DNA of 29,852 nucleotides from Nitrosopumilaceae archaeon. GTDB lineage: Archaea; Thermoproteota; Nitrososphaeria; Nitrososphaerales; Nitrosopumilaceae. A program made the translations under genes and the position numbers. The stretch spans positions 1 to 29,852 of the forward strand of contig DASSAF010000286.1 in NCBI GenBank assembly GCA_035685565.1, given 5' to 3'. Position 1 is the stretch's first letter. Every line of letters begins with the position of its first letter. The notes under the pieces are model-generated. The model ran no database searches, had not been told where the DNA came from, and saw only the letters and a list, made by a program, of their open reading frames with translations. Below, piece after piece: positions 122-29,743 of this stretch.

Positions 122-1099
122 CTGACTAAATTCATTCGGCGTCTGCAAAAAATTGGTAGTAGTATTCTGGTTTCACTTCCAAAAGAATGGATTGATACAA
201 ACAAGTTAGAAAAAAGTGATGAAGTTGAAATAGAAACTGGTTCAGACAGTCTTTCCATTACTCCATCAGGAGATATCAAGCCATTAAAGGAAGTAACAAT
301 ATCATACCCTGTTTCAAAAGAAGAAAATGTTATTGCAGATATAACAGGTGCCTATCTTCTTGGATATGATATAATCAAGATCAAGGGCAAATCAACTATT
401 TCAATTGAAGACAGAGAAAAGATTAGGACATCAATGCGTAGATTGGTTGGTATGGAAATTGTTGACGAAGACTCGGCAAATGTAAATGTACATTTTTTAT
501 TGGATGCAAAAACACTTAGTGCCGAAAAAATTCTAAAACGTATGAGTACAATTGCACTTGGAATGTTTCGTGATACATTAAACACATTGACATCTGGTGA
601 CAAGACTGTACTACAAACAATGGTGAATCGTGATGATGAAATAGATAGACAATATTTCCTACTTGTAAGATTGATTCGAAGTACCATGGTTGACAAGAAG
701 CTTGCTAATGCATTAAATCTTGAAAATATTGATATTTTAGATTATAGAATAGCGGCAAATCTTCTTGAGGCTGCAGGTGATACTATAGTAGAACTTGCTA
801 ACTCACTTACAGGTTTATCATTAATGCCAACTGATATCAAAAAGATCTATGATGTTGCAAAAGAAATTGAAAAAATTCATGAAAAGTCCATTGAGGCATT
901 CATTAGTCATAACAGATCGCTTGCAATTGAAGCTATTGCACTACATAGGATATATCATAAGAAAATTTCCGAGATTCGTTCCTTACTTGAGACAAAAAAA
1001 CGAACTTCAATTGATCTGTTTGATATTGTTTATTCCTTTGATAGGATTGCTCGCTGTTGGAACGATATAGCTGATCTTGTAAAGCCAGTTTACATATAA
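122..1099 (+). CDS. AbrB-domain + PhoU-domain phosphate uptake regulator family protein
   Basis: Track ORF 434..1099 extends in frame to 122: (M)TKFIRRLQKIGSSILVSLPKEWID is an AbrB/SpoVT-like N-terminus; PhoU-like helical repeats follow. In-frame TGA at 113-115 limits the start, implying CTG at 122. Confidence 0.85.
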   Translation: MTKFIRRLQKIGSSILVSLPKEWIDTNKLEKSDEVEIETGSDSLSITPSGDIKPLKEVTISYPVSKEENVIADITGAYLLGYDIIKIKGKSTISIEDREKIRTSMRRLVGMEIVDEDSANVNVHFLLDAKTLSAEKILKRMSTIALGMFRDTLNTLTSGDKTVLQTMVNRDDEIDRQYFLLVRLIRSTMVDKKLANALNLENIDILDYRIAANLLEAAGDTIVELANSLTGLSLMPTDIKKIYDVAKEIEKIHEKSIEAFISHNRSLAIEAIALHRIYHKKISEIRSLLETKKRTSIDLFDIVYSFDRIARCWNDIADLVKPVYI

Positions 1100-1266: not shown

Positions 1267-2910
1267 ATGAAATTTAATCAATTTTTTGTCCCAGTAACTG
1301 TCTTTATTATTATGATTGGAATTTGGGCTATTACTCCAAATATTACTCATGCAATGACGCCAACTCCAACAATAATACCAACAGACCTAACTGCAACAGC
1401 AGTCTCCCCAACTCAGATCAACCTTTCATGGAATGCACCAACACAAAACTATGGAAAAACTATCATTGGTTACAAAATTGAACAGAAATTAAACAGTGGT
1501 AAATATTTTACATTAATAGAAAATTCAAACAGAATAATTACTACGTATTCTTTGACTGGATTGACAACTGATACAACTTACACTTACAAAGTAGCAGCGG
1601 TTTACTCTGATGATACTAGTACAGATCTATCAAATGCAGCATCTGCAACTCCGACCAAAACATCTGTACCTCCACCAACTCCCCCGTCTACATCTCCAAT
1701 TACAAACGTAAAATTAGATTTTACACCGTCTGATGGAACTACACTAACAGCCGTCATAATAACACAAAGTGATTATCAACAATTACAATATCAAAAAAAT
1801 TCTAGAAGTATAATATCTAACGCGGTATCAACAACAGAAACAATAACTAATGATTTGGCTGGAATTCTAACATATCAGAATTATCATTTAAGCCCAGCTT
1901 CAGTACCTGGACCACTTATGGCAAAAGCAGTCTCTCCAACCCAAATCAACCTTTCTTGGCTTCCGCCATTAGAGAACTACCAACAAAAAGTAATTGGTTA
2001 CAAAATTGACTTGAAACGAGTTCCAGGTGATTATGTCATAATAGATGATAATACTGGTAATAGTACTACAAAATATTCAATCGTTGGTCTGAAGACTGAT
2101 GCTACATACACTTACAGAGTAGCGGCCATTTATTCTGATCATACCACTAGTAATCCATCAAACGAGGCTTCCGCAACCACACTTCAATCATTACCGCCTG
2201 CTCCACAGCCCACACTTCCACCTTCATCAAATACAACACTTCCACAACCCACACCAACACCACAACCTGTGATGAATGTAAAATTTGACTTTACAGCATC
2301 TGACGGAACCACATTAACAACTGTCATAATAACACAAAGTGATTATCAACAACTAATAGTCATAAAAGATCCAAGAAGTATAATCTATAATGTAACAGAA
2401 ACAACAGGCACTATAAACAATAATCTATCAGGTCTTCTTAGATATCAGACAATTCATTCTTCTCAAGAAACTACACCTCCTCAACAGACAAACTATACTC
2501 CATCAGTTCCAACCAACACTACTAATTCAGATAACAGACTAGTAGATGGTGTGATTACTGCAATAGTAGCATCAGGAGCAGTATCGATAATCACTTGGTT
2601 TGTTAGAACAAAAATTGCAAAAAAAATAGCAAAAGAATACTACTTTACATTGGAAAAGATCATTGAGGATGCAACTCAGCATGTAAGAATTAGAAATAGT
2701 GGTCCTACAATAGAAGATTGTATTATCTTATGTTCAAATGTGGCATGTGTTTGGACTGACACAAAAACAGATAAACCAAGACACGTCTATGAGGGCAGTA
2801 TTTCGGTAATAAAACTACCTGATGAATTTGGGAATAATCCATTGATTAGTGTTAAGAGTGGCAAGAAAGTTCTAAAAAGGACTCACCTCGATGATATGGC
2901 TTATGGCTAA
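1267..2910 (+). CDS. Fibronectin type III domain surface/membrane protein with duplicated modules
   Basis: Signal peptide, two FN3 domains (PTDLTATAVSPTQINLSW..Y.Y.V.A), P/T-rich linkers, a repeated NVK.DFT.SDGTTLT.VIITQSDYQQL module, TM helix VITAIVASGAVSIITWFV and a C-terminal tail of about 100 aa. Confidence 0.85.
   Translation: MKFNQFFVPVTVFIIMIGIWAITPNITHAMTPTPTIIPTDLTATAVSPTQINLSWNAPTQNYGKTIIGYKIEQKLNSGKYFTLIENSNRIITTYSLTGLTTDTTYTYKVAAVYSDDTSTDLSNAASATPTKTSVPPPTPPSTSPITNVKLDFTPSDGTTLTAVIITQSDYQQLQYQKNSRSIISNAVSTTETITNDLAGILTYQNYHLSPASVPGPLMAKAVSPTQINLSWLPPLENYQQKVIGYKIDLKRVPGDYVIIDDNTGNSTTKYSIVGLKTDATYTYRVAAIYSDHTTSNPSNEASATTLQSLPPAPQPTLPPSSNTTLPQPTPTPQPVMNVKFDFTASDGTTLTTVIITQSDYQQLIVIKDPRSIIYNVTETTGTINNNLSGLLRYQTIHSSQETTPPQQTNYTPSVPTNTTNSDNRLVDGVITAIVASGAVSIITWFVRTKIAKKIAKEYYFTLEKIIEDATQHVRIRNSGPTIEDCIILCSNVACVWTDTKTDKPRHVYEGSISVIKLPDEFGNNPLISVKSGKKVLKRTHLDDMAYG
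1753..2352 (+). repeat. Intragenic direct repeat: identical 30-mer gtcataataacacaaagtgattatcaacaa at 1753-1782 and 2323-2352, part of a larger module duplication
   Basis: Read directly; FN3 copies start near 1399 and 1927 (offset 528), second-module copies near 1708 and 2278 (offset 570). Confidence 0.9.
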
Positions 2911-2950: not shown

Positions 2951-3622
2951 TTATGCATTTCTATTCAACTTTCCATCTTTGTTGAATAAATTCTGGATTT
3001 TTGTATTTGCAAGATTGTATTTGACGTTCAAGTTCTTGTTGATACTTACCAGTTGGTCTTTGTGGACTGCAGCTGCATTATTGTATGCCTGCAAAGCTTC
3101 TTGCATAGTACCACCATTTTTAAGCACTTGATTCATTGCGTTTCTTGCATTCTGGATCTTTTGTTGCATGAAATTAAATTGATCCCAGAAAAGATTCTGT
3201 GTAGAGTTGTTCACATGTGTTACAAAGCTGGCATATGCATTTTTTGGAGCAGTCAGATCATTTCCATTATTCATACTGGCAAGATCATTTTGTAAATATG
3301 CATTTGCAATTTTACGTTGTTGCTCTATGAACTGGTTTTGCTGATCTACTATCTGTTGTTTTTGTTGCATTGCAGCGTATCTTTGCTTGAATAATTCTAT
3401 GTTTTCAAGAATTTTCATTTCTGTGGGATTGTTCTTTATTGCATCTGTAGCTAATATTGTATTGGTTTTACTAGCTCCAGTATCAGCCCAAGCAAAACCA
3501 AAATTTGTTACAACTATTAGCACTGCAAAAATACTTGCAAAAACACATAGTTGACTTCTCTTATTCATTTTCTTACCTTTGTCGTTAGTTTGCATTTCTC
3601 TATTTTCTATGGTTCCAATCAT
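2951..3622 (-). CDS. Secreted Q/N-rich helical protein of unknown function (thaumarchaeal-type hypothetical)
   Basis: 223-aa ORF; hydrophobic signal region LCVFASIFAVLIVVTNFGFAWA; coiled-coil-like QQKQQ..EQQRKIA. ATG at 3622 has GAGGTGA 7 nt upstream; ATG at 3568 is an alternative start. Confidence 0.85.
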   Translation of the reverse strand: MIGTIENREMQTNDKGKKMNKRSQLCVFASIFAVLIVVTNFGFAWADTGASKTNTILATDAIKNNPTEMKILENIELFKQRYAAMQQKQQIVDQQNQFIEQQRKIANAYLQNDLASMNNGNDLTAPKNAYASFVTHVNNSTQNLFWDQFNFMQQKIQNARNAMNQVLKNGGTMQEALQAYNNAAAVHKDQLVSINKNLNVKYNLANTKIQNLFNKDGKLNRNA

Positions 3623-3629
3623 TTTATTT

Positions 3630-3636
3630 TCACCTC
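3630..3636 (-). promoter_or_regulatory. Shine-Dalgarno GAGGTGA for the 2951..3622 gene
   Basis: Plus strand tcacctc at 3630-3636; archaeal SD consensus with a 7-nt spacer to ATG 3622. Confidence 0.7.
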
Positions 3637-3645
3637 ACTGGTTTC

Positions 3646-3698
3646 TCCCGACAACAAACAACGTTGTTTCGTCCGAGTTTCACGGACTCATCAGGGGA
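3646..3698 (-). ncRNA. Hammerhead ribozyme, type I topology (stem I open)
   Basis: Minus strand UCCC-CUGAUGA-GUCCG-ugaaacu-CGGAC-GAA-ACAAC-guuguuu-GUUGU-C-GGGA: complete core CUGAUGA/GAAA/GUC, 4-bp stem I, 5-bp stem II, 5-bp stem III; predicted cut between 3650 and 3649. Confidence 0.9.
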
Positions 3699-3718
3699 TT
3701 TTTTGTATTCTCCTGTTA

Positions 3719-3949
3719 TCATAAGGACCGCAACACTACTTCCAGCACACTTATCAAACCCCTCTTAACATCATCTCGAAGGATTGTACGGATGATTTTT
3801 TGATATTTATTACCACATATTCCAGAATGTGAGAGTAGATGTCTGTTACAAAAGGCACATCCACAAGTTACACATAGTTTTGTACAGTTCTGTGAACATG
3901 TGTCGCATTGCGATTTCTCAATGCGTTCAATTGTTGGTATTGATGTCAT
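3719..3949 (-). CDS. Small Cys/His-rich zinc-finger protein, 76 aa (B-box/AN1/HIT-like spacing)
   Basis: MTSIPTIERIEKSQCDTCSQNCTKLCVTCGCAFCNRHLLSHSGICGNK..: CxxC-x7-CxxC-x4-CxxH-x3-H-x3-C. Start moved from 4051 to ATG 3949 because a TATA-like tttataat lies about 20 nt upstream. Confidence 0.7.
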   Translation of the reverse strand: MTSIPTIERIEKSQCDTCSQNCTKLCVTCGCAFCNRHLLSHSGICGNKYQKIIRTILRDDVKRGLISVLEVVLRSL

Positions 3950-7392: not shown

Positions 7393-7902
7393 TTAAAGTA
7401 ATTTTTTCTTCATATTGTATGCTAAAACTGCACAAATTGTTTTAGAATCAACAATCTTTCCGGATAAAATCATTTTTATTACTTTTTTAAAATCAATTTT
7501 TACTACTGATAATATTTCATCTTCATCTAGTTTTAGTTTACCTGATTTTCTAATTCCGGATGCAACAAAGCAGTGAATGACTTCGGTATTGTATCCTATT
7601 GATGGGTAATACTTTATCAGAGAAATCATCTTTTTTGCATCATAACCTGTCTCTTCCCTTAATTCCCTAAAGGCGCATTTTCGTGGATTTTCTCCTTTGT
7701 TACACGTTCCTGCAGGAATTTCTAATACATAACCAAGTGGGAAACGGTGCTGTTTTACTAAAATCACCTTACCTTTCTCAATCGCAAGCATGGCAGCAGC
7801 ACCTCTATGTTCAATGACTTCTCGATTCACTTTGCGTTTGTTTATTAAAACATTATAGAGACTCAATGAAAGAATTTTGCCATCATAGATTTTCTTCTTC
7901 AT
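7393..7902 (-). CDS. NUDIX hydrolase, ADP-ribose pyrophosphatase-like
   Basis: Nudix box GTCNKGENPRKCAFRELREETG; VKQHRFP, EIPAG, IVDSKTI motifs; start at MKKKIY (7902) or 7911. Confidence 0.9.
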   Translation of the reverse strand: MKKKIYDGKILSLSLYNVLINKRKVNREVIEHRGAAAMLAIEKGKVILVKQHRFPLGYVLEIPAGTCNKGENPRKCAFRELREETGYDAKKMISLIKYYPSIGYNTEVIHCFVASGIRKSGKLKLDEDEILSVVKIDFKKVIKMILSGKIVDSKTICAVLAYNMKKKLL

Positions 7903-7931
7903 AGTATACACTCTTACGAGTCTAAAATCAA

Positions 7932-8837
7932 TTATGAATGTATCTGATATGAAAGATGAAGTCTTTTTGAAGTTTTTACTTCCTTAATACTATCCATTAC
8001 CCATTTTTGTGGAAATGAGATCTTCTTTGGTATGAACAGATCTACAGAATTTACTCCTTGTATTTTTTGTACCAGTTGAGTTAGCTCATCAAGCTTGAAA
8101 ATATTGTCGCTATAAAAAAACAATACAATTTGATTCATATTTACAAAGGGTTTTTGCAAAAATGTCCTGCCAAATTCTTTTTCTAGATTTTGTAGTGTTT
8201 TTTTAACATTACCTTCTACTCCAACAAGAATTGCAAATGGAATGTATCCTGTCATTTCTTTAGGATTGTATAATAGTGTAAACTGTATTGCTTCATCGTT
8301 TTGCAGCTTGTCGAGGGAACGTGTTACAGTTTTTGTAGAAAGATCAGCTAGTTTGGCAATATTTTCAATTTTTAATCTAGGATCTTTCAAAAGTATTTCT
8401 ATAATTTCAAGATCTGTCTTTGTAAGATCAGATCTTACACCAGGATTTTTAGCCTCAAAAATTGCTAATACTCTAACGCTTTGCAATATTTTTTTTGCAA
8501 GTTCCATTTTTTGATTAGGATCTCCTTTTACAACTATACTACAAACAGTCACACTTCCAACACACGGAACTACAAAAAATGGTTCTCCAATTAGCTTCAC
8601 CTGATCTAAAATGTATTGCAAATCAGTTCCTGTTACAACAAAATAGAGAACACTATATCCCAAAACAGGCGGTTCTATTTTTAGGGCAAACTCTTCAATA
8701 ATTTTTCTATCTAACATTTTTTGAATTCTTGATTTTACAGCTCCTCCAGATATGCCTACACTATTTCCAATCTGTCTATCTGGTATTCGACAATTGTTCA
8801 GTAGATGTGAGAGAATATGTATGTCAATTTTGTCCAT
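7932..8837 (-). CDS. Tandem Lrp/AsnC family transcriptional regulator
   Basis: Two HTH units: MDKIDIHILSHLLNNCRIPDRQIGNSVGISGGAVKSRI and LTKTDLEIIEILLKDPRLKIENIAKLADLSTKTVTRSL. Confidence 0.88.
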   Translation of the reverse strand: MDKIDIHILSHLLNNCRIPDRQIGNSVGISGGAVKSRIQKMLDRKIIEEFALKIEPPVLGYSVLYFVVTGTDLQYILDQVKLIGEPFFVVPCVGSVTVCSIVVKGDPNQKMELAKKILQSVRVLAIFEAKNPGVRSDLTKTDLEIIEILLKDPRLKIENIAKLADLSTKTVTRSLDKLQNDEAIQFTLLYNPKEMTGYIPFAILVGVEGNVKKTLQNLEKEFGRTFLQKPFVNMNQIVLFFYSDNIFKLDELTQLVQKIQGVNSVDLFIPKKISFPQKWVMDSIKEVKTSKRLHLSYQIHS

Positions 8838-8953: not shown

Positions 8954-10147
8954 ATGGATTATAGGGCTAAGGTAGGTTTGCGTTTTATTACAAGACGTAA
9001 AGGCAGTTTAATTGCTGCAAGTCTTGCTGTCTCAATTGCCATTTTGGTAGTACAGGTAAATTCTGTAATTTTTCAGGGTTTGTATAATGCAATTATACGT
9101 GATCAGATAAACTACAGATTTGGGCATGTCTATATCACAAGAAACGAGAATTTCATAACAAAATCAGATAAAATGTTGATAAACTGGCTTGAAAGAATCC
9201 CATATGTGGAAGCTGCTGCGCCGCGGCTTGATTCTACTGCATCAGTTAACGCAACAGGATCTGGGCAAACAGTTAGAGATTACGACGTTCCTGTAATTGG
9301 GGTAGATCCAGTTTTAGATGCACAAGCATCAACGATGTATACTACAGTTGGAGATGGACAGTATGTATCTTCAAGAAACTCTATTGTCCTTGGAGCTTTG
9401 GTAGCACGAGATCTTGGAAATCCACATGTAGGTGATAGCATAAAATTAAAATTCAAAGATAGAAATGGTGTTGATCAACTGAGACGATTTACCATAGTGG
9501 GAATTACCCAGACTGCTGGTTCTGTTGGTCTTGATAATAGTGTAATAATGAATATTGATACTTTACGAGAAATATTGGATAGACCACATGAAACACAATC
9601 AATCATGGTTAGGTTAAATGATCCAACAAAAGATCAAGTAGTAAAAGATCTTTTTCTTAGTGCATTTCCAACTCGTTCAGATAACTTTAAAGCTCAGACA
9701 ATTGAAGAATCTGCCGAGCAAACACTCAGTGGATTCAGATCAGGTATTGCATTAATTAATCTAGTTGGGTACTTTGGCATGATGTCTTCTGCTTTTGCTG
9801 TTGTAACTATACAAATGATGCAAGTCACAAGTAAGACACGTGAAATTGGAATAATGAGGGCAATTGGATCAAAAAGAAAAGACATTCTAATGATATTCAT
9901 CTTCCAAGGAATGGTAATTGGTGCTATAGGCGCAGGTCTTGGTACTGTTTTTGGTGTATCGTATACAGTTTATGCAAAAGAAACACACTTGACATTCCAA
10001 GGCAGCTTGGCCTTAGAGGTGTCTTACAACTGGCTTGGGATATTACAAACAGACATTTTGGCATTTGTGCTTGCTATAGTGGCATCAATTTATCCTGCTT
10101 ACAAGGCAACGAAATTACAACCCGTGGAGGCCATGCGATTTGGCTGA
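8954..10147 (+). CDS. ABC transporter permease, MacB/LolE/FtsX family
   Basis: N-terminal TM, large external domain, KTREIGIMRAIGSKRKDILMIF and three C-terminal TMs. Confidence 0.92.
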   Translation: MDYRAKVGLRFITRRKGSLIAASLAVSIAILVVQVNSVIFQGLYNAIIRDQINYRFGHVYITRNENFITKSDKMLINWLERIPYVEAAAPRLDSTASVNATGSGQTVRDYDVPVIGVDPVLDAQASTMYTTVGDGQYVSSRNSIVLGALVARDLGNPHVGDSIKLKFKDRNGVDQLRRFTIVGITQTAGSVGLDNSVIMNIDTLREILDRPHETQSIMVRLNDPTKDQVVKDLFLSAFPTRSDNFKAQTIEESAEQTLSGFRSGIALINLVGYFGMMSSAFAVVTIQMMQVTSKTREIGIMRAIGSKRKDILMIFIFQGMVIGAIGAGLGTVFGVSYTVYAKETHLTFQGSLALEVSYNWLGILQTDILAFVLAIVASIYPAYKATKLQPVEAMRFG

Positions 10148-10844
10148 TTCAGTTCTACAAGTACGTAATGTAGATAAGATATTTGGTGAAGGCGAAACAG
10201 CTGTCTATGCATTAAAAAACGTGTCATTTTCCATAAAAAAGGGAGAATTCATTTTAATTGTGGGCAGCTCTGGCTCTGGCAAATCAACACTACTTAACAT
10301 GATTGGACTTTTAGATAGACCCACAAATGGTCAAGTCTTCATAGATGGAATAGATCCTTCTAATCTAAATGATAACCAGATTTCATCATTTAGAAATTCT
10401 AAACTTGGATTCATTTTTCAATTTTCGAATCTACTTTCAGATTTAACAGTTTTAGAAAATGTACTTCTTCCAAGACAAATACAAAGAACTGACGCAAAAG
10501 CAATTGATGAAGTGAAATCATTGCTAAAGACAGTTGGCTTGGAAAATCAGATGAATAAATATGCAAATAAAATCTCTGGAGGTCAAGCACAAAGAGTAGC
10601 TATTTGCAGAGCTCTTATCAATAAACCAGCAATAGTTTTAGCTGATGAACCAACAGGAAATTTGGATTCTTTATCAGCACAAACGACTGTTCAGTTAATG
10701 AAATCTCTTAATAGAAAATTGGGACATACTTTCATAATAGTAACACATGATCGTCCCCAATTTGGTGATGTTGATAAAATAATTACAATTAAAGATGGTA
10801 GAATTGTCGATGATGAAATGATGGAGGTTCCAGCAGTAAATTGA
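10140..10844 (+). CDS. ABC transporter ATP-binding protein, LolD/MacB-type
   Basis: Walker A GSSGSGKS, signature ISGGQAQR, Walker B IVLADEPTGNLD, H-loop VTHD. Confidence 0.95.
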   Translation: MADSVLQVRNVDKIFGEGETAVYALKNVSFSIKKGEFILIVGSSGSGKSTLLNMIGLLDRPTNGQVFIDGIDPSNLNDNQISSFRNSKLGFIFQFSNLLSDLTVLENVLLPRQIQRTDAKAIDEVKSLLKTVGLENQMNKYANKISGGQAQRVAICRALINKPAIVLADEPTGNLDSLSAQTTVQLMKSLNRKLGHTFIIVTHDRPQFGDVDKIITIKDGRIVDDEMMEVPAVN

Positions 10845-21110: not shown

Positions 21111-21452
21111 ATGATGATGCTGAACAAACGTTCAAAATTATCTGGTATTATAATAATTGTAGGTTTAACGATCGCACTTTCTACATTCTTTACAACCCCA
21201 GCATTTGCGCAATCCGCAGCTACAAGTTCAGGTTTAACAAAACCATTGTTAGCTATTGCAGCTGCAATTGCTATAGCTGGAGGTTTGATAGGTACTGGTA
21301 ATGCACAACAAGGAATTGGTGCTGCTGGTATGGGTATCATAGCTGAGAAGCCAGAAAAATTTGGTCAGGTATTATTCTTCTTTGTCATTCCTGAAACACT
21401 CTGGATCATCGGATTCGTGCTAGGAATCATTCTGTTACTTGGCATACTATAG
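21111..21452 (+). CDS. atpK: A/V-type ATPase subunit K (c, proteolipid)
   Basis: Hairpin TMs AAAIAIAGGLIGTGNAQQGIG and FFVIPETLWIIG with carrier Glu; signal-peptide-like leader. Confidence 0.93.
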   Translation: MMMLNKRSKLSGIIIIVGLTIALSTFFTTPAFAQSAATSSGLTKPLLAIAAAIAIAGGLIGTGNAQQGIGAAGMGIIAEKPEKFGQVLFFFVIPETLWIIGFVLGIILLLGIL

Positions 21453-21463
21453 TGGAATTTGTA

Positions 21464-22018
21464 ATGAGCATAGAGACCTTTCTCCTTGAGATAGAGAATA
21501 GGAAAAAAAAGGATCTTGCAAAACTTAGCAAAGAACTAGATGAAAAAGGAACTGCTATACAAAACCAAAGAGATGCACAAATCAAAGAAATACAGGAACG
21601 TTTTGCAAATGAGGCAAAATTAAAATCTGAAAGAGAATTAGCAAGAATAATAGAGTCAGCTAGATTACAAGCAAAAAAAATCATGTTTGATGCCATTAAC
21701 GCAAACTTAGAATCTTCATTTGATGTTATTAAACAAGAAATTAAGAATTATGTAAAATCACCGCAGTACAAGAAAACATTAGAAACCATGGTAAATACCT
21801 CAAAAAAAAAATTAGGTCAACAAATTACTGTTCATTGTCGTGAAGAAGACCGTGCAGTTTTAAAAGAAATGGGAATTACCATTGATTCTACAATTAAAAC
21901 TTTGGGTGGAATAATAGCAGAAAATAATGATGGAACAAAGGAAATAGATCTGACATTTGAAGAACTTTTAAGAACTCATGAAGATGAAGTAAAAGGTTTT
22001 CTTTCGGAGAGAACATAA
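21464..22018 (+). CDS. atpE: A/V-type ATPase subunit E
   Basis: Charged N-terminal helix; TLGGIIAE..EIDLTFEELL; operon position. ATG 21464 (or GTG 21452). Confidence 0.9.
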   Translation: MSIETFLLEIENRKKKDLAKLSKELDEKGTAIQNQRDAQIKEIQERFANEAKLKSERELARIIESARLQAKKIMFDAINANLESSFDVIKQEIKNYVKSPQYKKTLETMVNTSKKKLGQQITVHCREEDRAVLKEMGITIDSTIKTLGGIIAENNDGTKEIDLTFEELLRTHEDEVKGFLSERT

Positions 22019-23085
22019 TGGGAACTTCACAATATGCATCTTCTTTTGGTAGATTGCAAGCAATATCAATGAATTTTCTTACTAAAGATATGATGCAGAA
22101 TTTATTAAAAGCAAAAGATGACGTTGAAATGGCAAAAATACTCGAGTCAACATGGTATGGACCAGAGATTGAAAAAGCTGCATCTGTTTACCAACCTTCA
22201 GAAATTTTAGAAATTGCATTGAATCGATACCTTGTTCAAATTAATAAAATTGCATTAGACGCAACGCCGTTTAATGGAAAATCTGCAGTTAGAGCATATT
22301 TGTCAAAATGGGATATCTACAATATTGAATTGATACTTTCTTCAAAAAGTATGGGCAAAACAATTACTGAGACAGAATCATTTCTCGTCTCTAGTCGTAA
22401 CGTCCCAGCAGGAATTTCTGCAGGTAATATTACCCATGATGAGATGAAAACCATTCTCTCACAAACAGGTGTAGATGGTGTAGTAAATCAACTTGTGAAA
22501 TACAACTATGGCACAATCTTAATGCAACACTTGGAAGAATACCAGAAAAGTAGTGATCTTGGTCCTATGATGTATGCTTTACAAAAATTTTATTATAAAG
22601 CATTACTTGAATCTCTGAAATTCTTTCAAGGCGATGAAGGTATGATAAGGGAATTTTTCAGAGCAGAGATTGATAAGAAAAATATACTAAATCTTATGAA
22701 AGGTAAAGAAGCAAATTTGGATAAAGAACTAGTAGGTAGACATCTTATCGACGGAGGAAGAATTCCAATAAATGAGCTATTGGATATCTATGGAGTAAAA
22801 GATTCTGCAGAAATTGCCGGAAGAGTGGAAAATCGCTTTTCTTTAATAAACGCGTTAGCACAATACAAAAAGACAAAAAGTTTAATTGATTTTGAAGTGG
22901 CACTTGACAAATTCATAAATATTCAATATGTCAAAAAATTGAAAAATATTGCACTTTCTATTGGAACAGTATTTTACTTTATAATTAATGCAGAATATGA
23001 ACGTGAAAACATTAGAAGAATAGCATATGGAAAACGTTACAATTTATCAACTGAACAAATAAGCTCAATGTTGCTAAGTGAATAA
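22018..23085 (+). CDS. atpC: A/V-type ATPase subunit C (d)
   Basis: 355 aa; YLSKWDIYNIELIL, EIDKKNILNL, EYERENIRRIAYG motifs. Confidence 0.9.
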   Translation: MGTSQYASSFGRLQAISMNFLTKDMMQNLLKAKDDVEMAKILESTWYGPEIEKAASVYQPSEILEIALNRYLVQINKIALDATPFNGKSAVRAYLSKWDIYNIELILSSKSMGKTITETESFLVSSRNVPAGISAGNITHDEMKTILSQTGVDGVVNQLVKYNYGTILMQHLEEYQKSSDLGPMMYALQKFYYKALLESLKFFQGDEGMIREFFRAEIDKKNILNLMKGKEANLDKELVGRHLIDGGRIPINELLDIYGVKDSAEIAGRVENRFSLINALAQYKKTKSLIDFEVALDKFINIQYVKKLKNIALSIGTVFYFIINAEYERENIRRIAYGKRYNLSTEQISSMLLSE

Positions 23086-23087
23086 AA

Positions 23088-23426
23088 ATGTCTAAACAAA
23101 AAACAGAATCAAGTGGAAGGATTGCAGTAATAGGAGAGCGTGAGCTAGTCATTGGATATCGACTTCTTGGAATGGACGATACATTTATTGTCAGTAAGGA
23201 TGATGCTAACAAAACATTGCAAGAACTTTTTTCATCTGGTAAATTTGGGTTGATTATTGTAAGCGAATTTGTTCGCAACTTACTTCCAAGTACATTTAAA
23301 ACAAAAATCGAGGCATCCATAGAACCACTGGTATTATTCATGCCATCACTACAGGGAAACATTCAAGAAGAGTCAATATCCGTATTAGCAAAAAGGGTAT
23401 TGGGGATTAATATTCAAGGAAGTTGA
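23088..23426 (+). CDS. atpF: A/V-type ATPase subunit F
   Basis: RIAVIGERELVIGYRLLGM, FGLIIVSE, KRVLGINI. Confidence 0.92.
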   Translation: MSKQKTESSGRIAVIGERELVIGYRLLGMDDTFIVSKDDANKTLQELFSSGKFGLIIVSEFVRNLLPSTFKTKIEASIEPLVLFMPSLQGNIQEESISVLAKRVLGINIQGS

Positions 23427-23433
23427 TGATGAG

Positions 23434-25200
23434 ATGACAGATGGAATAGTTTCTAGAATTTCAGGACCCGTAGTTTTAGCAAGTGGTCTTGAAGGCGCAC
23501 AAATGTTTGACGTCGTACGAATTGGTGAACTTGGTCTAGTAGGAGAAATAATTCGTTTAGAAGGCAACAAGGCTACCATTCAGGTGTATGAAGATACAAC
23601 TGGTTTAAGACCAGGTGAAAAAGTCATCAATACAAAACGTCCGCTCTCATTGCAACTTGGACCAGGACTTTTAACTTCAATTTATGATGGTATTCAAAGG
23701 CCACTTGATGTACTAAGAGCACAAAGTGGAGACTTTATCAGCAGAGGAAATATCATCCCAGCACTTGATCAGACAAAAAAATGGGATTTTATTCCATTAA
23801 AGAAAAAAGGTGATCATGTTTCTCCAGGTGAAATTATTGGTGAAGTCCAAGAAACTCCATTGATAATGCACAAAATAATGATTCCATATAATGTTGAAGG
23901 TGAACTCACAGAAATATCTGAAGGAAAATACAACGTCAATGAGATTGTAGGATCTGTTCAAACAAATAGCTCAAAAGTAGAAATTGGTCTGTCAAGTTGG
24001 TGGACAGTTCGTGTACCAAGACCCGTACTGCGTAAACTTCCACCAGAAGAACCATTGCTTACAGGTCAACGTGTATTAGATACATTCTTTCCAGTAGCAA
24101 AAGGCGGAACTGCCGCAATTCCAGGACCATTTGGAAGTGGAAAAACAGTAACCCAACAACAACTTGCCAAATGGGCAGACAGTAACGTCATTGTCTATGT
24201 AGGTTGTGGAGAAAGAGGAAACGAGATGACAGAGGTTCTTACAACTTTTCCAAAACTAGAGGATCCTAAATCAAAGCGTCCATTAATGGAACGTACAATT
24301 CTTGTTGCTAATACCTCTAACATGCCAGTAGCTGCACGTGAAGCTAGTATCTATACTGGAATTACAATGGGAGAATATTATCGTGATATGGGATATGGTG
24401 TAGCATTGATGGCAGATAGTACATCTAGATGGGCTGAAGCACTAAGAGAAATTTCAGGAAGATTAGAAGAGATGCCAGGTGAAGAAGGATATCCAGCATA
24501 TCTTGGAAGAAGATTAGCAGAGTTTTATGAAAGGGGTGGCAAAGCTATTGTTATATCTCCAGAGGAGAGGATAGGTTCCTTGACTTTGGTTGGTGCAGTT
24601 TCACCTCCTGGTGGAGACTTTTCAGAACCAGTATCACAAAACACACTAAGAGTTACAAGAGTTTTCTGGGCTTTGGATGCAAGCTTGGCATCAAGAAGAC
24701 ATTTTCCATCTATCAACTGGCTTACAAGTTATTCATTGTATGCTGATAACATGGGTGAATGGTACAAAAATAATGTTGCAGTCGATTGGGTTGCTCTAAG
24801 AAAAGAAGCTCTAGAAATTTTACAAAGAGAATCAGAATTGCAAGAAATTGTTCAATTGGTAGGTTATGATGCATTACCCGAACCAGAAAAAGGAGTTTTG
24901 GACACTGCACGATCTATTAGAGAAGATTATCTGCAACAAAGTGCTTATGATGAAGTCGATACTTATACATCAATTAAAAAACAATATCTTTTACTTAAAA
25001 CAATTTTAGATTTTGGTAGAAAAGAAAGTGATGCAATAAAGAAAGGTGCAACATCATCAAAGATTGGTGCACTAGAATCAAGAAAAATGATTTCAAGAAT
25101 AAAATGGACTAAAGAAGAACAAGTAGAGCAATTGGTTAAGGATACACTGACTACCATGGAAAAAGAATTCAATACTCTAATGATTGAGGTGACTACATAG
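23434..25200 (+). CDS. atpA: A/V-type ATPase catalytic subunit A
   Basis: Walker [40 protein letters not shown]; no intein. Confidence 0.97.
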
Positions 25201-26592
25201 ATGTCTGGTGTAGCATTCAAGACACTATCAAAAATTGCAGGTCCACTGATATTTGTAGAAGGCGTAGATAATGCAGCTTATGGCGAAATGGTTGAGATAA
25301 AACTTCCCAACGGCGAGAGACGACAAGGACAAGTCCTTGATACTAGACAAGGTTTAGCAGTGGTTCAAGTCTTTGGTCCAACCCTTGGCATGACTACTTC
25401 TGGAACCACAACAAAATTCACTGGTGAGACTGCAATGATGTCAGTTTCTGATGAAATGCTTGGAAGGGTATTTGATGGACTAGGGAATCCTAGAGATAAT
25501 GGACCAAAAATAGTATCTAAACAAAAAGTTGATCTTGTAGGTTCTGGTATCAATCCATACGCCAGAGAAGAACCTTCAGAATTCATCCAAACAGGAATGT
25601 CAAACATTGATGGAATGAATACTCTTGTAAGAGGTCAAAAGCTTCCAATATTTTCTGGTTCTGGTCTTCCACATAATTTACTTGCTGCACAGATAGCAAG
25701 ACAGGCCAAAGTTCTTGGTGGTTCTGAAAACTTCTCTGTTGTGTTTGCTGCAATAGGAATTACAAGTGAAGAATCAAACTTTTTCATAAAGCAATTTGAA
25801 GAAAGCGGAGCTCTTGGAAGAACCGCACTATTTTTGAATCTGTCATCTGATCCTTCTATGGAGCGTATACTTACTCCTAGACTTGCTCTAACAACAGCAG
25901 AATTTCTTGCTTATGAGCGTGACATGCATGTCCTTGTCATTATTACCGATATGACAAATTATTGTGAAGCATTAAGAGAAATCGCTGCAGCACGTGAAGA
26001 AGTTCCAGGAAGAAGGGGATATCCGGGATACATGTATACCGACCTATCATCTCTTTATGAAAGAGCCGGAAAGATAAAGGGGCGACATGGTTCCGTAACA
26101 CAAATTCCTATACTCACAATGCCAGCTGATGATATTACACATCCTATACCAGATCTTACTGGTTACATTACGGAAGGTCAGATAGTAATGAGTAGAGATT
26201 TGCATAGATCAGGTATTCATCCACCAGTAGATGTACTAACAAGTCTTTCACGTTTGATGAATCAAGGTATTGGAAAAGGAAACACAAGAGAAGATCATCG
26301 AGGTCTAGCAGACCAACTTTATGCAGCATATGCACAAGGTAAAGATGCAAGATCACTTGCAGCTATAGTTGGTGAAGAAGCTCTAAGTGATTTAGATAAG
26401 AAATTTCTAAAGGTTGCTAACAACTTTGAGAGAAAATTTGTTGATCAAGGAATGGACGAAAACCGTTCAATTGAACAAACTCTAGACATTGGTTGGGAAT
26501 TACTTAGCGATCTATCTGACTCAGAAATGAATCGTATTAAACCAGAATTCATTGCAAAATACGGGAAAAGAACCACAAAGGGTGGTGCATAG
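25201..26592 (+). CDS. atpB: A/V-type ATPase subunit B
   Basis: [45 protein letters not shown]; SD gaggtga upstream. Confidence 0.97.
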
Positions 26593-26595
26593 ACT

Positions 26596-27264
26596 TTGCC
26601 ATCAGTAATTAACATTCGTCCAACTCGTCTTGAATACATTCGTACTAAGCGAAGAATTGTTGTTGCTAACAAAGGATTAAAGTTACTAAAACTAAAACGT
26701 CAAGCATTAATTCTAGAATTTTTTAATGCAAGCAAAACTGCTGCTGCATTAAGAAGCGGTTTACAATCTGAATTGGTAAAAGGCTACCAAAGTATCAGAT
26801 TAGCAGAGATGCTTGCAGGTACAATGAGATTAGAAAATGAAGCAATGAAGATTCCACAAATAAGTAAATTGCAAATTCAAGTAAAAAATGTAATGGGAGT
26901 TAGTATACCAAAATTAGAAGGTGGAAAAAGTAATACTGCTATTATTGAGCATATATTGGAACTTCCTCCTTCAATTAATGAAGCAATAAAAGCATTTCAA
27001 AATGTTCATAAAATGGTACTTGATGTTGCAGAAAAAGAAACCACGTTACGAAAGCTTCTATATGAGATTGAAAAGACAAAACGAAAATCTAATGCAATAG
27101 AGAACGTTTTCATTCCAAGATTACAGGGGGCTGTTAAATTCATCATATTCAGACTAGCTGAGATGGAACGTGATACATTCATCATGTTAAAGACAGTAAA
27201 GCGTAAGATGGGTGAAAGAGAACAAGAAAATATTCAAAGGGAGAAAGAAATACTTGCCAGCTAA
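26596..27264 (+). CDS. atpD: A/V-type ATPase subunit D
   Basis: RPTRLE..GLKLLKLKRQAL, EIEKTKRKSNAIE..FIP; TTG start. Confidence 0.95.
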   Translation: MPSVINIRPTRLEYIRTKRRIVVANKGLKLLKLKRQALILEFFNASKTAAALRSGLQSELVKGYQSIRLAEMLAGTMRLENEAMKIPQISKLQIQVKNVMGVSIPKLEGGKSNTAIIEHILELPPSINEAIKAFQNVHKMVLDVAEKETTLRKLLYEIEKTKRKSNAIENVFIPRLQGAVKFIIFRLAEMERDTFIMLKTVKRKMGEREQENIQREKEILAS

Positions 27265-27382
27265 TTTTGCAAATCCACAACAAAGAAAATTCTATCTGAT
27301 CATGAGAGCATTTAAAATTGGAAACATTTTTGGTACAATTATTATAGCACTGTATGCAGGAAAGCATTTCTTAGGAGCATAA
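27254..27382 (+). CDS. Candidate 42-aa single-TM small protein between atpD and atpH (26 aa if started at ATG 27302)
   Basis: Manual translation from TTG 27254: MPANFANPQQRKFYLIMRAFKIGNIFGTIIIALYAGKHFLGA; overlaps the atpD stop and ends 1 nt before the atpH ATG; below the ORF-track length cutoff. Confidence 0.55.
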   Translation: MPANFANPQQRKFYLIMRAFKIGNIFGTIIIALYAGKHFLGA

Positions 27383-27383
27383 C

Positions 27384-27710
27384 ATGTCAACTCAAGAAAA
27401 ATACGTTCATTCTCTTAAACAAATTAAGGAAGGTGAAGAAAAGGCATGGGCGGAAGTTCAAAATTTCAAGAAAAAAGTAATAGAAGATATCAAATCTTTT
27501 CAAATTGATGCTGATAAGACAATCGAGGCAACAAAAACACAAGGAGAAAAATTAGTTGAGACAAGTATAGATCAAGCAAGAAAAAATGCTGAAATTGAAG
27601 TAAAAAAAATTATTGAAGATGCAAAAACAAAATCAAAAACAATATCGTCACAAATGGATGAAAAAACTATTCGTGGAATTCTAGATATTTTATTGAAAGG
27701 TGTAGAATAA
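27384..27710 (+). CDS. atpH: A/V-type ATPase subunit H (G)
   Basis: 108-aa charged helical protein directly before atpI; SD aggag upstream. Confidence 0.85.
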   Translation: MSTQEKYVHSLKQIKEGEEKAWAEVQNFKKKVIEDIKSFQIDADKTIEATKTQGEKLVETSIDQARKNAEIEVKKIIEDAKTKSKTISSQMDEKTIRGILDILLKGVE

Positions 27711-29743
27711 TGGTACTCAAACCTGTCCCAATGACTATGATGGCAGTACTTGGTTTAAGAAAAGATAGGCAAGTTGTAATTTCTGTTTTACATGATATGG
27801 GCATAGTACAATTGGAACCATTATCTAAAGACGTGGCTTCCATGCTCAAAAATGAACGTGATAATGACCTTTACAGGCAAGTTTCAGATCAACTACTTAG
27901 AATTAAAGCATTCAAAATGGTTCTACCTCCCAATCCAATCTCAAGTTGTCAACGTTTTCCAACAATTGACAATTTGATGCAAGCAGCAAAATCAATCGAT
28001 ATAGATTCTAAAATAGCTTCTCTAGAAAGAGAAAAAGAAAATCTCCTAACTAAAATAAATGAAACTGAAAATAATGTGAAACTTGTTGAAGAATTTTCAT
28101 TTTTTCCAGAAGACTTTAACGTACTTCAGTTAGTATTAGGCCATTCTTACTTTGGCCGTTTAGATTCAAAGCAATTTCCATCTTTTAAGAAAGCGTTAGA
28201 AGTAAATAATCTAGACGTTTTCCTTTATTCTAAAGAAGAAAAAGAAGTTACACGTATTATTCTTATTACATTTCCTAACTTCCCTCCTCATGCCCTTGCT
28301 ACTGCTGTTCAAGAATATGATGTTAAACTTGAAGCTGTACCAAAACTCAATGGAACAGCAGCTCAATTAAAACAATCATTAGGTACTGTTCTTAATGAAC
28401 TAGCTCAAAAATTAAAAGAAATTGATAGACAACTAGGCGAGATTTCCAAAGAACATTATGCAAATATTGTATGCATTGAAGAACAACTTGAAATAGAAAA
28501 CAGAAAACTTGAAGTCATTGATAATCTTGGAGTTACATCTGATTCTTTTGCTCTAGAAGGTTGGGTTCCAAAATCAAAATTAGAATCAGTTAAAGCTAAT
28601 CTAGACAAGCATACCAAAGGAACTATTGTTTACGAATTAGAGACTGAAGAAAATCCGCCAACCCTATTTGCAAATCCAAAAAGGTTCAAGTTGTTTGAAG
28701 CCTTTATCAGATTCTATTCTTTACCACAAGGTAAAGAATTTGATCCTACATTAATTTTCGGTCTTATCTTTCCAGTCTTTTATGGTATGATGGTAGGAGA
28801 TGCAGGCTATTGTCTTTTTATTCTCCTTGTTTGCAGATGGGTAATCAGAAGAGTAGAGGGTGGAAAACGTAATCTCAACATCATGCCAAAGCCTTTGAGA
28901 AAATTTGCACTTACTATATTGAAACCCAGGCAGATGGTTAAATTGGCAAAGGCAATGACTCCTGGTGCTATTATTGGAATTATTTTAGGATTCACATTCA
29001 ATCTGTACTTTGGATTTCATCTCAATGGCTATCTGTTTAATTATATAAATACGGCACTTGGCATGCAACTTCTTCCTATTAGTGGAGCAATCTTTAATCC
29101 CATTGTAGGATTACGTAGACTCTTGCTAATTAGTGGATATATTGGTCTAGGAATGGTAACATTTGGTCTAATTCTTGGAATCCTCAATAGCCTAAGAGAG
29201 GGAGAAAAGAAACATGCTATTGGAAAAGTAGGCTGGTTGCTATTTGGATGGGGTGTTGTGATGACAGGGCTAGCATTAATGCATCATGGACACATCAATC
29301 CAATTCACCATGTAGAGGGAATTGGTTACTTTGGATTGCTTTTGGGTGGAATTGGTTTAATGTTTGTTGGAGAAGGTCCAAGAGCTATTATGGAATTACC
29401 GTCTATAGTTAGTCACATACTTTCTTACACAAGAATTGTTGGAATTCTACTAGCCTCAGTAATACTAGCTGATGTAATTGATTTCATTTTTATAAAAACA
29501 CTACATCATTCAATACCGTTTATTGTTCTTGGAACAATGATTCTTTTCATTGGTCACATATTCAATATAATAATTGGAGTTTTTGAGCCTGGAATTCAGG
29601 GAGCAAGATTGGTTTACGTGGAATTTTTCTCCAAATTTTATCATGGAAATGGTAGAGCATTTAGACCATTTGGAACTATGCGCAAGTTTACTTATGATCA
29701 GTACGAATTAGAAATAAAAGAAAAAACTAAAGTCAAAAAATAA
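27710..29743 (+). CDS. atpI: A/V-type ATPase subunit I (a)
   Basis: Soluble N-half, LEGWVP, FYGMMVGDAGY, essential Arg in LSYTRI, RLVYVEFFSKFY.G.G..F.PF. Confidence 0.96.
   Translation: MVLKPVPMTMMAVLGLRKDRQVVISVLHDMGIVQLEPLSKDVASMLKNERDNDLYRQVSDQLLRIKAFKMVLPPNPISSCQRFPTIDNLMQAAKSIDIDSKIASLEREKENLLTKINETENNVKLVEEFSFFPEDFNVLQLVLGHSYFGRLDSKQFPSFKKALEVNNLDVFLYSKEEKEVTRIILITFPNFPPHALATAVQEYDVKLEAVPKLNGTAAQLKQSLGTVLNELAQKLKEIDRQLGEISKEHYANIVCIEEQLEIENRKLEVIDNLGVTSDSFALEGWVPKSKLESVKANLDKHTKGTIVYELETEENPPTLFANPKRFKLFEAFIRFYSLPQGKEFDPTLIFGLIFPVFYGMMVGDAGYCLFILLVCRWVIRRVEGGKRNLNIMPKPLRKFALTILKPRQMVKLAKAMTPGAIIGIILGFTFNLYFGFHLNGYLFNYINTALGMQLLPISGAIFNPIVGLRRLLLISGYIGLGMVTFGLILGILNSLREGEKKHAIGKVGWLLFGWGVVMTGLALMHHGHINPIHHVEGIGYFGLLLGGIGLMFVGEGPRAIMELPSIVSHILSYTRIVGILLASVILADVIDFIFIKTLHHSIPFIVLGTMILFIGHIFNIIIGVFEPGIQGARLVYVEFFSKFYHGNGRAFRPFGTMRKFTYDQYELEIKEKTKVKK

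Follow-up and report, generated by a model that had tools for sequence, protein, structure and literature searches.

The analysed window, the whole 29,852-nucleotide (nt) contig DASSAF010000286.1 of a Nitrosopumilaceae archaeon (assembly GCA_035685565.1), contains a V-type-like atp operon in which the genes for the central-stalk subunit D (atpD) and the peripheral-stalk subunit H/G (atpH) are separated by 119 nt, whereas the remaining atp junctions measure -1, -1, +2, +7, 0, +3, and -1 nt according to the coordinates of the open reading frames (ORFs). What does this interval specify, and is it connected to the ATPase? In a sequence-only reading of the window, the gap had been seen to be filled by one frame running from TTG 27254 to TAA 27382, with gggaga about 9 nt upstream and the same TTG-CCA start as atpD, and these features were borne out by the sequence and the ORF coordinates. 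Comparative analysis indicated that the frame is almost certainly a genuine gene tied to the ATPase. Its product appears, on balance, to be a translated single-pass membrane microprotein encoded in the V-type-like ATPase operon, with the N-terminus inside the cell and accessory to the membrane sector of the enzyme.

Positions 27254 to 27382, forward strand: microprotein gene with TTG start, 42 codons, and TAA stop (27380-27382); product MPANFANPQQRKFYLIMRAFKIGNIFGTIIIALYAGKHFLGA.
Positions 27239 to 27244, forward strand: Shine-Dalgarno (SD)-like motif GGGAGA, 9 nt 5' of the TTG and within the 3' end of atpD.

The frame shares the last 11 nt of atpD and its stop lies 1 nt before the ATG of atpH (27384). 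Taken alone, the chance of 42 open codons is about 3% at this base composition, and comparison with other genomes was therefore needed. An intact frame was detected at the same place in every relative with a V-type-like AtpD (AtpD 73-99% identical; L001-L012). For a scan across species, the AtpD alignment was compared with genome contigs, one genome per species, by which more than 300 operons were detected. The 80 loci listed all came from Nitrososphaeria; among them were Ca. Nitrosotalea devanaterra, N. bavarica, Nitrosopolaris, Nitrososphaera sp. AFS, and the 'TA_20' group. The homologous frame is intact directly 3' of atpD in 79 of the 79 assessable loci among these 80 matches, the last one ending at a contig edge and hence being left out. 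Stops, frameshifts, or a missing interval in orthologous gaps, which according to the sequence-only reading would speak against a gene, were thus not seen in any of the 79 loci listed. The variable columns fall on codon positions 1, 2, and 3 in the proportion 15/12/27, which is a third-position bias. For 304 genome pairs with comparable synonymous divergence (dS about 0.96), the ratio of nonsynonymous to synonymous substitutions (dN/dS, omega) was about 0.09 for the microprotein, compared to 0.03 for AtpD and 0.14 for AtpH, and the conserved frame with dN/dS below 1 that had been suggested as a check in related operons, Nitrosotalea included, was in this way obtained. In the shifted frames omega was 0.83 and 1.79, and stops are present in 50/50 and 43/50 loci, respectively. 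Judged by these comparisons, the microprotein frame is coding and under purifying selection.

If the frame were open by chance and the D-H interval in reality an RNA element, an internal promoter, or a spacer without coding function, this would be compatible with the value of about 3% and with a TATA-like string, ATTATTATA, located about 40 nt before atpH. Most congeners have ATTACTATA in place of this string, and no Rfam match was obtained over the D-H interval, a sub-threshold match to a small nucleolar RNA being on the opposite strand inside atpD. Together with the substitution pattern, the intact frames at 79 of 79 loci listed, the low omega, and the stops that fill the other frames, these data in effect refute a chance frame, the probability of which is negligible. 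The caution that a frame of this length can arise by chance was fair with respect to base composition; the doubt was removed because the frame is conserved across relatives.

Two other start codons were considered. A longer version beginning at GTG 27212 was excluded, since Nitrosotalea-type relatives (L010, L062-L066) have an in-frame stop just 5' of the TTG. ATG 27302 is not conserved and is not preceded by an SD-like motif, and was also rejected. Equivalents of the SD-like motif, GGAG or GGTG, precede the start in L010, L011, and L012 despite differing C-termini of AtpD, and comparable motifs are found 5' of atpC, atpB, atpD, atpH, and atpI in the window. In more distant lineages the gene begins with ATG at the atpD stop or a few nucleotides away. 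Across loci, the frame overlaps atpD by 11 or 4 nt, and on the atpH side there is either a gap of 1-9 nt or an overlap of 4 nt. The SD-like motif of atpH lies inside the microprotein gene:

Positions 27373 to 27377, forward strand: AGGAG, SD-like motif of atpH, within the final codons of the microprotein gene.

From this arrangement, the microprotein is translationally coupled to atpD upstream and to atpH downstream, the junctions being typical of termination-reinitiation coupling as far as can be read from sequence. Assembled contigs of near relatives from two soil or sediment metatranscriptomes span the junctions between D and the microprotein and between the microprotein and H; this evidence is weak, because an assembled contig need not represent one transcript, carry-over of DNA may have occurred, and of the four 'RNA' runs two probably consist of DNA.

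Coupling of this kind could by itself account for an open frame, if ribosomes crossed the D-H interval merely to reinitiate at atpH and the peptide were irrelevant. The overlapping or abutting stop-start pairs and the SD-like motif of atpH within the last codons would fit such a translational spacer. Several observations speak against it: the amino acid constraint is stronger than that on AtpH (omega 0.09 versus 0.14), the near-invariant residues are far from both junctions, the remaining atp junctions need no spacer ORF, and intact paralogues are also encoded away from the operon, on the opposite strand. In these paralogues the conserved motif and the helix follow an N-terminal four-cysteine zinc ribbon (CPRC...CxxCG). 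They are transcribed divergently from a position upstream of atpK, and were found in family f4 and in related metagenome contigs:

L049, positions 1498 to 1740, reverse strand: zinc-ribbon paralogue.
L172, positions 242 to 508, forward strand: zinc-ribbon paralogue.
L034, positions 3575 to 3859, forward strand: zinc-ribbon paralogue.
L157, positions 10001 to 10198, forward strand: zinc-ribbon paralogue.

The genes pyrI/pyrB adjoin the paralogue in three of the four loci. L157, a contig of 2.6 Mb, harbors both versions: the paralogue is intact, and the in-operon copy is open across the D-H interval with a degenerate C-terminal half, as a pure spacer might be. A separate paralogue kept on the other strand argues that the peptide matters and not just its translation, and the spacer explanation was therefore considered improbable.

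If the peptide matters, the distribution of its gene should be indicative of what it works with. A class-wide sample of 201 genomes, each at least 80% complete, was searched, with V-type-like AtpD defined by E≤1e-35. All 33 genomes with a V-type-like AtpD carry the microprotein gene, and it adjoins atpD wherever both coordinates are listed. No confirmed copy was detected in A-type genomes, either in this sample or among 41 relatives, for which the profile search detected it in those genomes that encode a close V-type-like AtpD, and also in G027. In genera that are mostly A-type, the gene is limited to V-type carriers, with one confirmed copy in 52 genomes of g13, one in four of g35, and one in four of g45. 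This restriction within genera is what co-transfer with the operon predicts, and by this distribution the microprotein gene moves with the V-type-like operon. The co-occurrence is given as counts and not as a statistic, because kin are not independent. A second match in g13 was dismissed, being inside another gene, and weak class-wide matches in G211, G235, G287, and G313 were judged spurious as they are short or within larger genes. In two genomes of family f4, a strong match is located beside V-type-like atpK-atpE (AtpE 57% identical to that of the window) on contigs that stop before atpD. In another order (f18, AtpD 60% identical), the microprotein is again encoded between D and H and the core N-[PA]-Q-Q-[RK]-K-F-[YF] is kept; its N-terminal extension is proline- and aromatic-rich (PKYYYWAK-PPKP; L169:736-978, L170:669-899), in contrast to the Asn/Lys-rich extension of Nitrososphaeraceae-type members.

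On contig C8 of the same-family relative G020 (L011), both types of ATPase operon lie side by side, with A-type and V-type-like atpD about 6 kb apart (789-1400 and 7483-8124). The A-type operons of neutrophilic relatives (L014-L030) contain a different small ORF, a conserved and strongly hydrophilic one of about 43 amino acids (aa; e.g. MAKDEIKKL), directly after atpD. Its start is between -16 and +17 nt relative to the atpD stop. From this stop to atpK, the distance is about 125-300 nt, in most cases about 180 nt. This ORF could be a short subunit H/G, a subunit not identified in neutrophilic ammonia oxidisers (PMC6863869).

The host operon of the window is arranged in the order K-E-C-F-A-B-D-[microprotein]-H-I, which is identical in loci L031-L033 and in L157. 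Subunits c/K, E, C (AC39), F, A, B, D, and I were identified by a Pfam scan, and AtpH by NCBIfam matches below the cut-off (NF005006, V-type subunit H, E 2.8e-7; TIGR02926, AhaH, E 1.2e-4).

Positions 21111 to 29743, forward strand: V-type-like atp operon, from Pfam scan and ORF coordinates.
Positions 26596 to 27264, forward strand: atpD, central-stalk subunit D, upstream coupled gene (PF01813, E 5e-45).
Positions 27384 to 27710, forward strand: atpH, peripheral-stalk subunit H/G of 108 aa, downstream coupled gene (NCBIfam sub-threshold matches).
Positions 27710 to 29743, forward strand: atpI, membrane stator subunit I/a (PF01496).

AtpK was called with 113 aa in the window (21111-21452) and with 78 aa in G027 (L049:1935-2171). 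The shared core is 98% identical, and the N-terminal 35 residues in the window may either represent an extension or result from a start that was called too far upstream.

The product consists of a basic segment and one hydrophobic helix, as had been read from the window before, and this layout was supported by the charge bias and by structure prediction. AlphaFold with the family alignment yielded one continuous helix, residues 8-40, with a mean predicted local distance difference test (pLDDT) value of 90. Two regions stand out in 50 aligned family members:

Positions 27266 to 27316, forward strand: basic juxtamembrane motif F-x-N-x-x-Q-[RK]-K-F-[YF]-x-I-x-[RK]-x-F-K, codons 5-21, predicted to be cytoplasmic.
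Positions 27317 to 27364, forward strand: transmembrane core with G23-N24-I25 and G/A27 (small-xxx-small), closed by K37, codons 22-37.

Phe13 is invariant; F5, N7, Q10, and K21 are found in 48-49 of the 50 sequences, N24 in 47, K12 in 43, and G23 as well as G/A27 in 40. I25 and G41 are near-invariant, and [RK]11, [YF]14, I16, [RK]18, F20, and K37 are also strongly conserved. The conserved positions 13, 16, 20, 23/24, and 27 recur at a spacing of three to four residues. Such a periodicity, combined with a buried Asn and the small-xxx-small pattern, would be expected of a helix packing stably on a membrane protein. The mean net charge is +5.2 on the N-terminal side and +0.9 on the C-terminal side, and the N-terminal side is the more positive one in 50 of 50 sequences. 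According to the positive-inside rule, an N-in, C-out orientation is therefore predicted, and the cytoplasmic nature of a zinc ribbon likewise places the N-terminus inside the cell.

This orientation bears on the possibility that the microprotein is the detached anchor of the peripheral stalk, which together with AtpH would make up a split F-type b-like subunit. Its gene is immediately before atpH, and AtpH weakly matches models of F-type subunit b (E 0.004-0.06). Such an anchor would have to be N-out, C-in; the predicted C-out topology puts the C-terminus across the membrane from the cytoplasmic AtpH, and it is the N-terminus that is fused to a zinc ribbon. Moreover, the junction geometry varies among lineages, and the sole 'fused' database entries (P0092 and P0097) look like frameshifted or truncated calls. 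A split b subunit was consequently regarded as highly improbable. In the metagenome gene calls P0092, P0097, P0099, P0106, and P0072, the initial half of the microprotein is joined to AtpH, to AtpD, or to some unrelated sequence, and all of them resemble frameshifts, truncations, or chimeric assemblies and not natural fusions.

The frame had been described as uncalled, which is wrong. The exact 42-aa product with the same TTG start is present in NCBI nr on this contig, and orthologues are annotated in N. devanaterra as 'protein of unknown function' (CUR52763.1; UniRef A0A128A5Y5) and in N. okcheonensis as hypothetical (WP_255408294.1). The family comprises 84 clusters at 90% identity, 41-63 aa in length, all thaumarchaeal, all 'hypothetical', and without Pfam domain. 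The window product matches the family profile with E 2.2e-21 over F-x-N-x-x-Q-[RK]-K-F-[YF]...K-x-G-N-I and the helix, and the genes occupy the atpD-atpH interval of a V-type-like atp operon, except for the zinc-ribbon paralogue, whose place is next to atpK. A hidden Markov model (HMM) scan of 1.8 billion representatives revealed 25 members with E≤1e-3, which read as the family or as truncated or chimeric calls of it, and in the ESM Atlas matches were obtained only to unnamed clusters (scores 0.86-0.87). Two orthologues and the zinc-ribbon variants gave no usable match in Pfam or NCBIfam, and the profile of V-ATPase subunit e/Vma9 (Pfam ATP_synt_H) and other curated families of small ATPase subunits remained unmatched. 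In the paper defining the operon, the V-type-like ATPase is described as a nine-subunit enzyme, and the microprotein gene is unmentioned in its text and supplements (PMC6863869). The same study made use of Ca. Nitrosocosmicus oleophilus MY3, a cultured ammonia oxidiser with the V-type-like operon, and of a codon-optimised N. okcheonensis operon in E. coli. For the thaumarchaeal V-type-like ATPase, neither a structure nor a proteome was revealed by a literature search, and no structure of an ATPase with an extra subunit was obtained.

Small hydrophobic proteins are known from several rotary ATPases. The closest known precedent, by analogy, is AhaG of Methanosarcina mazei Go1, which is specified by the last aha gene, directly after ahaD (PMC4350412, PMC3750248). 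AhaG has a mass of 6.3 kDa, one of its tryptic peptides is very hydrophobic, and it 'cannot be ruled out' that it belongs to the A1AO ATPase (PMC4350412). It is reported to be absent from Thermoplasma and the acid mine drainage (AMD) plasmas, from which the V-type-like operon is supposed to have been acquired (PMC3750248). Like AhaG, the microprotein is a very small hydrophobic product encoded right after an archaeal gene for ATPase subunit D. In contrast to the ahaG gene, which ends its operon, the microprotein gene is placed between D and H-I, and the likeness is one of position, size, and hydrophobicity.

Genes of this layout were also found further away. In a DPANN-like order, eight of 20 sampled atpD loci are followed by a one-helix ORF of 27-52 aa with a basic N-terminus; seven of these start at -3 of the atpD stop and one is further downstream. 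A database protein near-identical to this material is named Woesearchaeota. In the distant thaumarchaeal V-type operon of G030 (AtpD 46% identical), a one-helix ORF begins 25 nt past the atpD stop. These ORFs share the slot, the size, the basic N-terminus plus helix, and mostly the ATGA overlap with atpD. It is hence common that atpD is followed by a small one-helix gene. When the thaumarchaeal profile was compared with all 707 small ORFs of these loci, post-atpD ORFs were three of the top four matches, with E 2.7e-4 (L164), 0.03 (G030), and 0.19. Profile-profile comparison with other post-atpD ORFs was not significant (hhalign probability 11%), iterated HMM searches recruited no further post-atpD ORFs, and a single-sequence word search with a DPANN post-atpD ORF gave no match. 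Common descent of the microprotein and the other post-atpD ORFs is at most plausible in view of these comparisons. A Nitrosotalea-like atpD, 85% identical to that of the window (L091/L133, G041:C217), is binned in a genome titled 'Methanosarcinales'; the order and class of G041 consist of small DPANN-like genomes, so that the contig is probably mis-binned and the genome mislabelled.

The sequence-only reading had also drawn an analogy to the small membrane subunits of eukaryotic V-ATPases. The proteins e/Vma9, f, RNAseK, and Vma21 are likewise small and hydrophobic and are attached to, or assemble, the V-type membrane sector. Subunit e and Vma21 each have two helices, whereas the microprotein has one and shows no sequence relationship to them. 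The analogy is functional at most, and a family relationship is unsupported because there is no Pfam match with E≤1 and a single helix instead of two. Bacterial AtpI/UncI and AtpQ/AtpR of N-ATPases are further small membrane proteins encoded in rotary ATPase operons, where they act as non-essential helpers and not as core subunits. They differ in having several helices and in being encoded at the 5' end or in the middle of F- or N-type operons, and no match to their Pfam or NCBIfam families was obtained here. Of the earlier proposal, the coding gene for a basic segment plus one helix is supported, and its tie to the operon is tighter than could be seen from the window (33/33 genomes, co-transfer, omega about 0.09); an accessory role is retained as likely, and the relationship to the eukaryotic small-subunit family is not retained.

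What the microprotein does has to be derived from its setting, the V-type-like ATPase of acid- and pressure-adapted ammonia-oxidising archaea. The helix would pack on the membrane sector, most probably on subunit I or the c-ring, by its Gly-Asn/small-xxx-small face, and the basic N-terminal part of the helix may lie on the cytoplasmic membrane surface. If the membrane sector is bound, subunit I would be the most likely partner. The microprotein could then be a small accessory subunit, or a factor by which the membrane sector is assembled or stabilised, and we consider it rather more probable than its contrary that it acts on or in this sector in one of these two ways.

A number of points weigh against this assignment. 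Operon membership by itself is no proof of physical association. The hydropathy of the window helix is moderate (Kyte-Doolittle 1.6-1.8); many orthologues, judged by eye, look more hydrophobic. Conservation of the C-terminal F-L-G is in part accounted for by the SD-like motif of atpH, which lies within the last codons. Neither Pfam nor NCBIfam gave a match with E≤1 for the window product or for P0064. To our knowledge, no such extra helix is seen in the solved structures of prokaryotic V/A-ATPases, and the role of AhaG, the nearest precedent, has been unresolved for decades (PMC4350412).

In addition, the data on operon linkage do not separate a stable subunit, a transient chaperone, and a functional partner. 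The product could accordingly be a genuine membrane microprotein whose work is done beside the ATPase and which is not part of the enzyme, for example in the membrane insertion of AtpI or AtpK, or by modulating another ion-handling component during proton pumping at low pH or high pressure. The stand-alone zinc-ribbon paralogue indicates that expression apart from the structural genes is possible, and neither purified A1 subcomplexes nor the proteomic capture of M. mazei yielded AhaG (PMC4350412). On the other side, coupling between rotor and stator genes and constraint on one face of the helix are more typical of a stable helix-helix partner, and no conserved neighbour other than atp genes was seen around the loci examined. 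A role merely alongside the ATPase thus appeared rather unlikely.

The most specific version of the preferred role, by which the microprotein is a stoichiometric tenth subunit with one helix on subunit I or in the c-ring, needed for assembly or coupling and belonging to an ancient family with AhaG and the DPANN ORFs, can be put forward tentatively, with more doubt than confidence. If it is true, such a subunit would be required where the enzyme works under high pressure or at low pH in tetraether membranes, and a small extra membrane subunit would be widespread in archaeal rotary ATPases. Among genetic correlates of the thaumarchaeal expansion into acid soils and ocean trenches, the V-type-like ATPase has the best support (PMC6863869). 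With a tenth gene that is universally co-inherited and more constrained than that of subunit H, heterologous expression, structural work, and models of this enzyme may miss a component. The question of AhaG, in turn, gains a much larger comparative set: the family has a clear motif and over 80 clusters, and the predicted topology is fixed by a natural fusion to a zinc ribbon.
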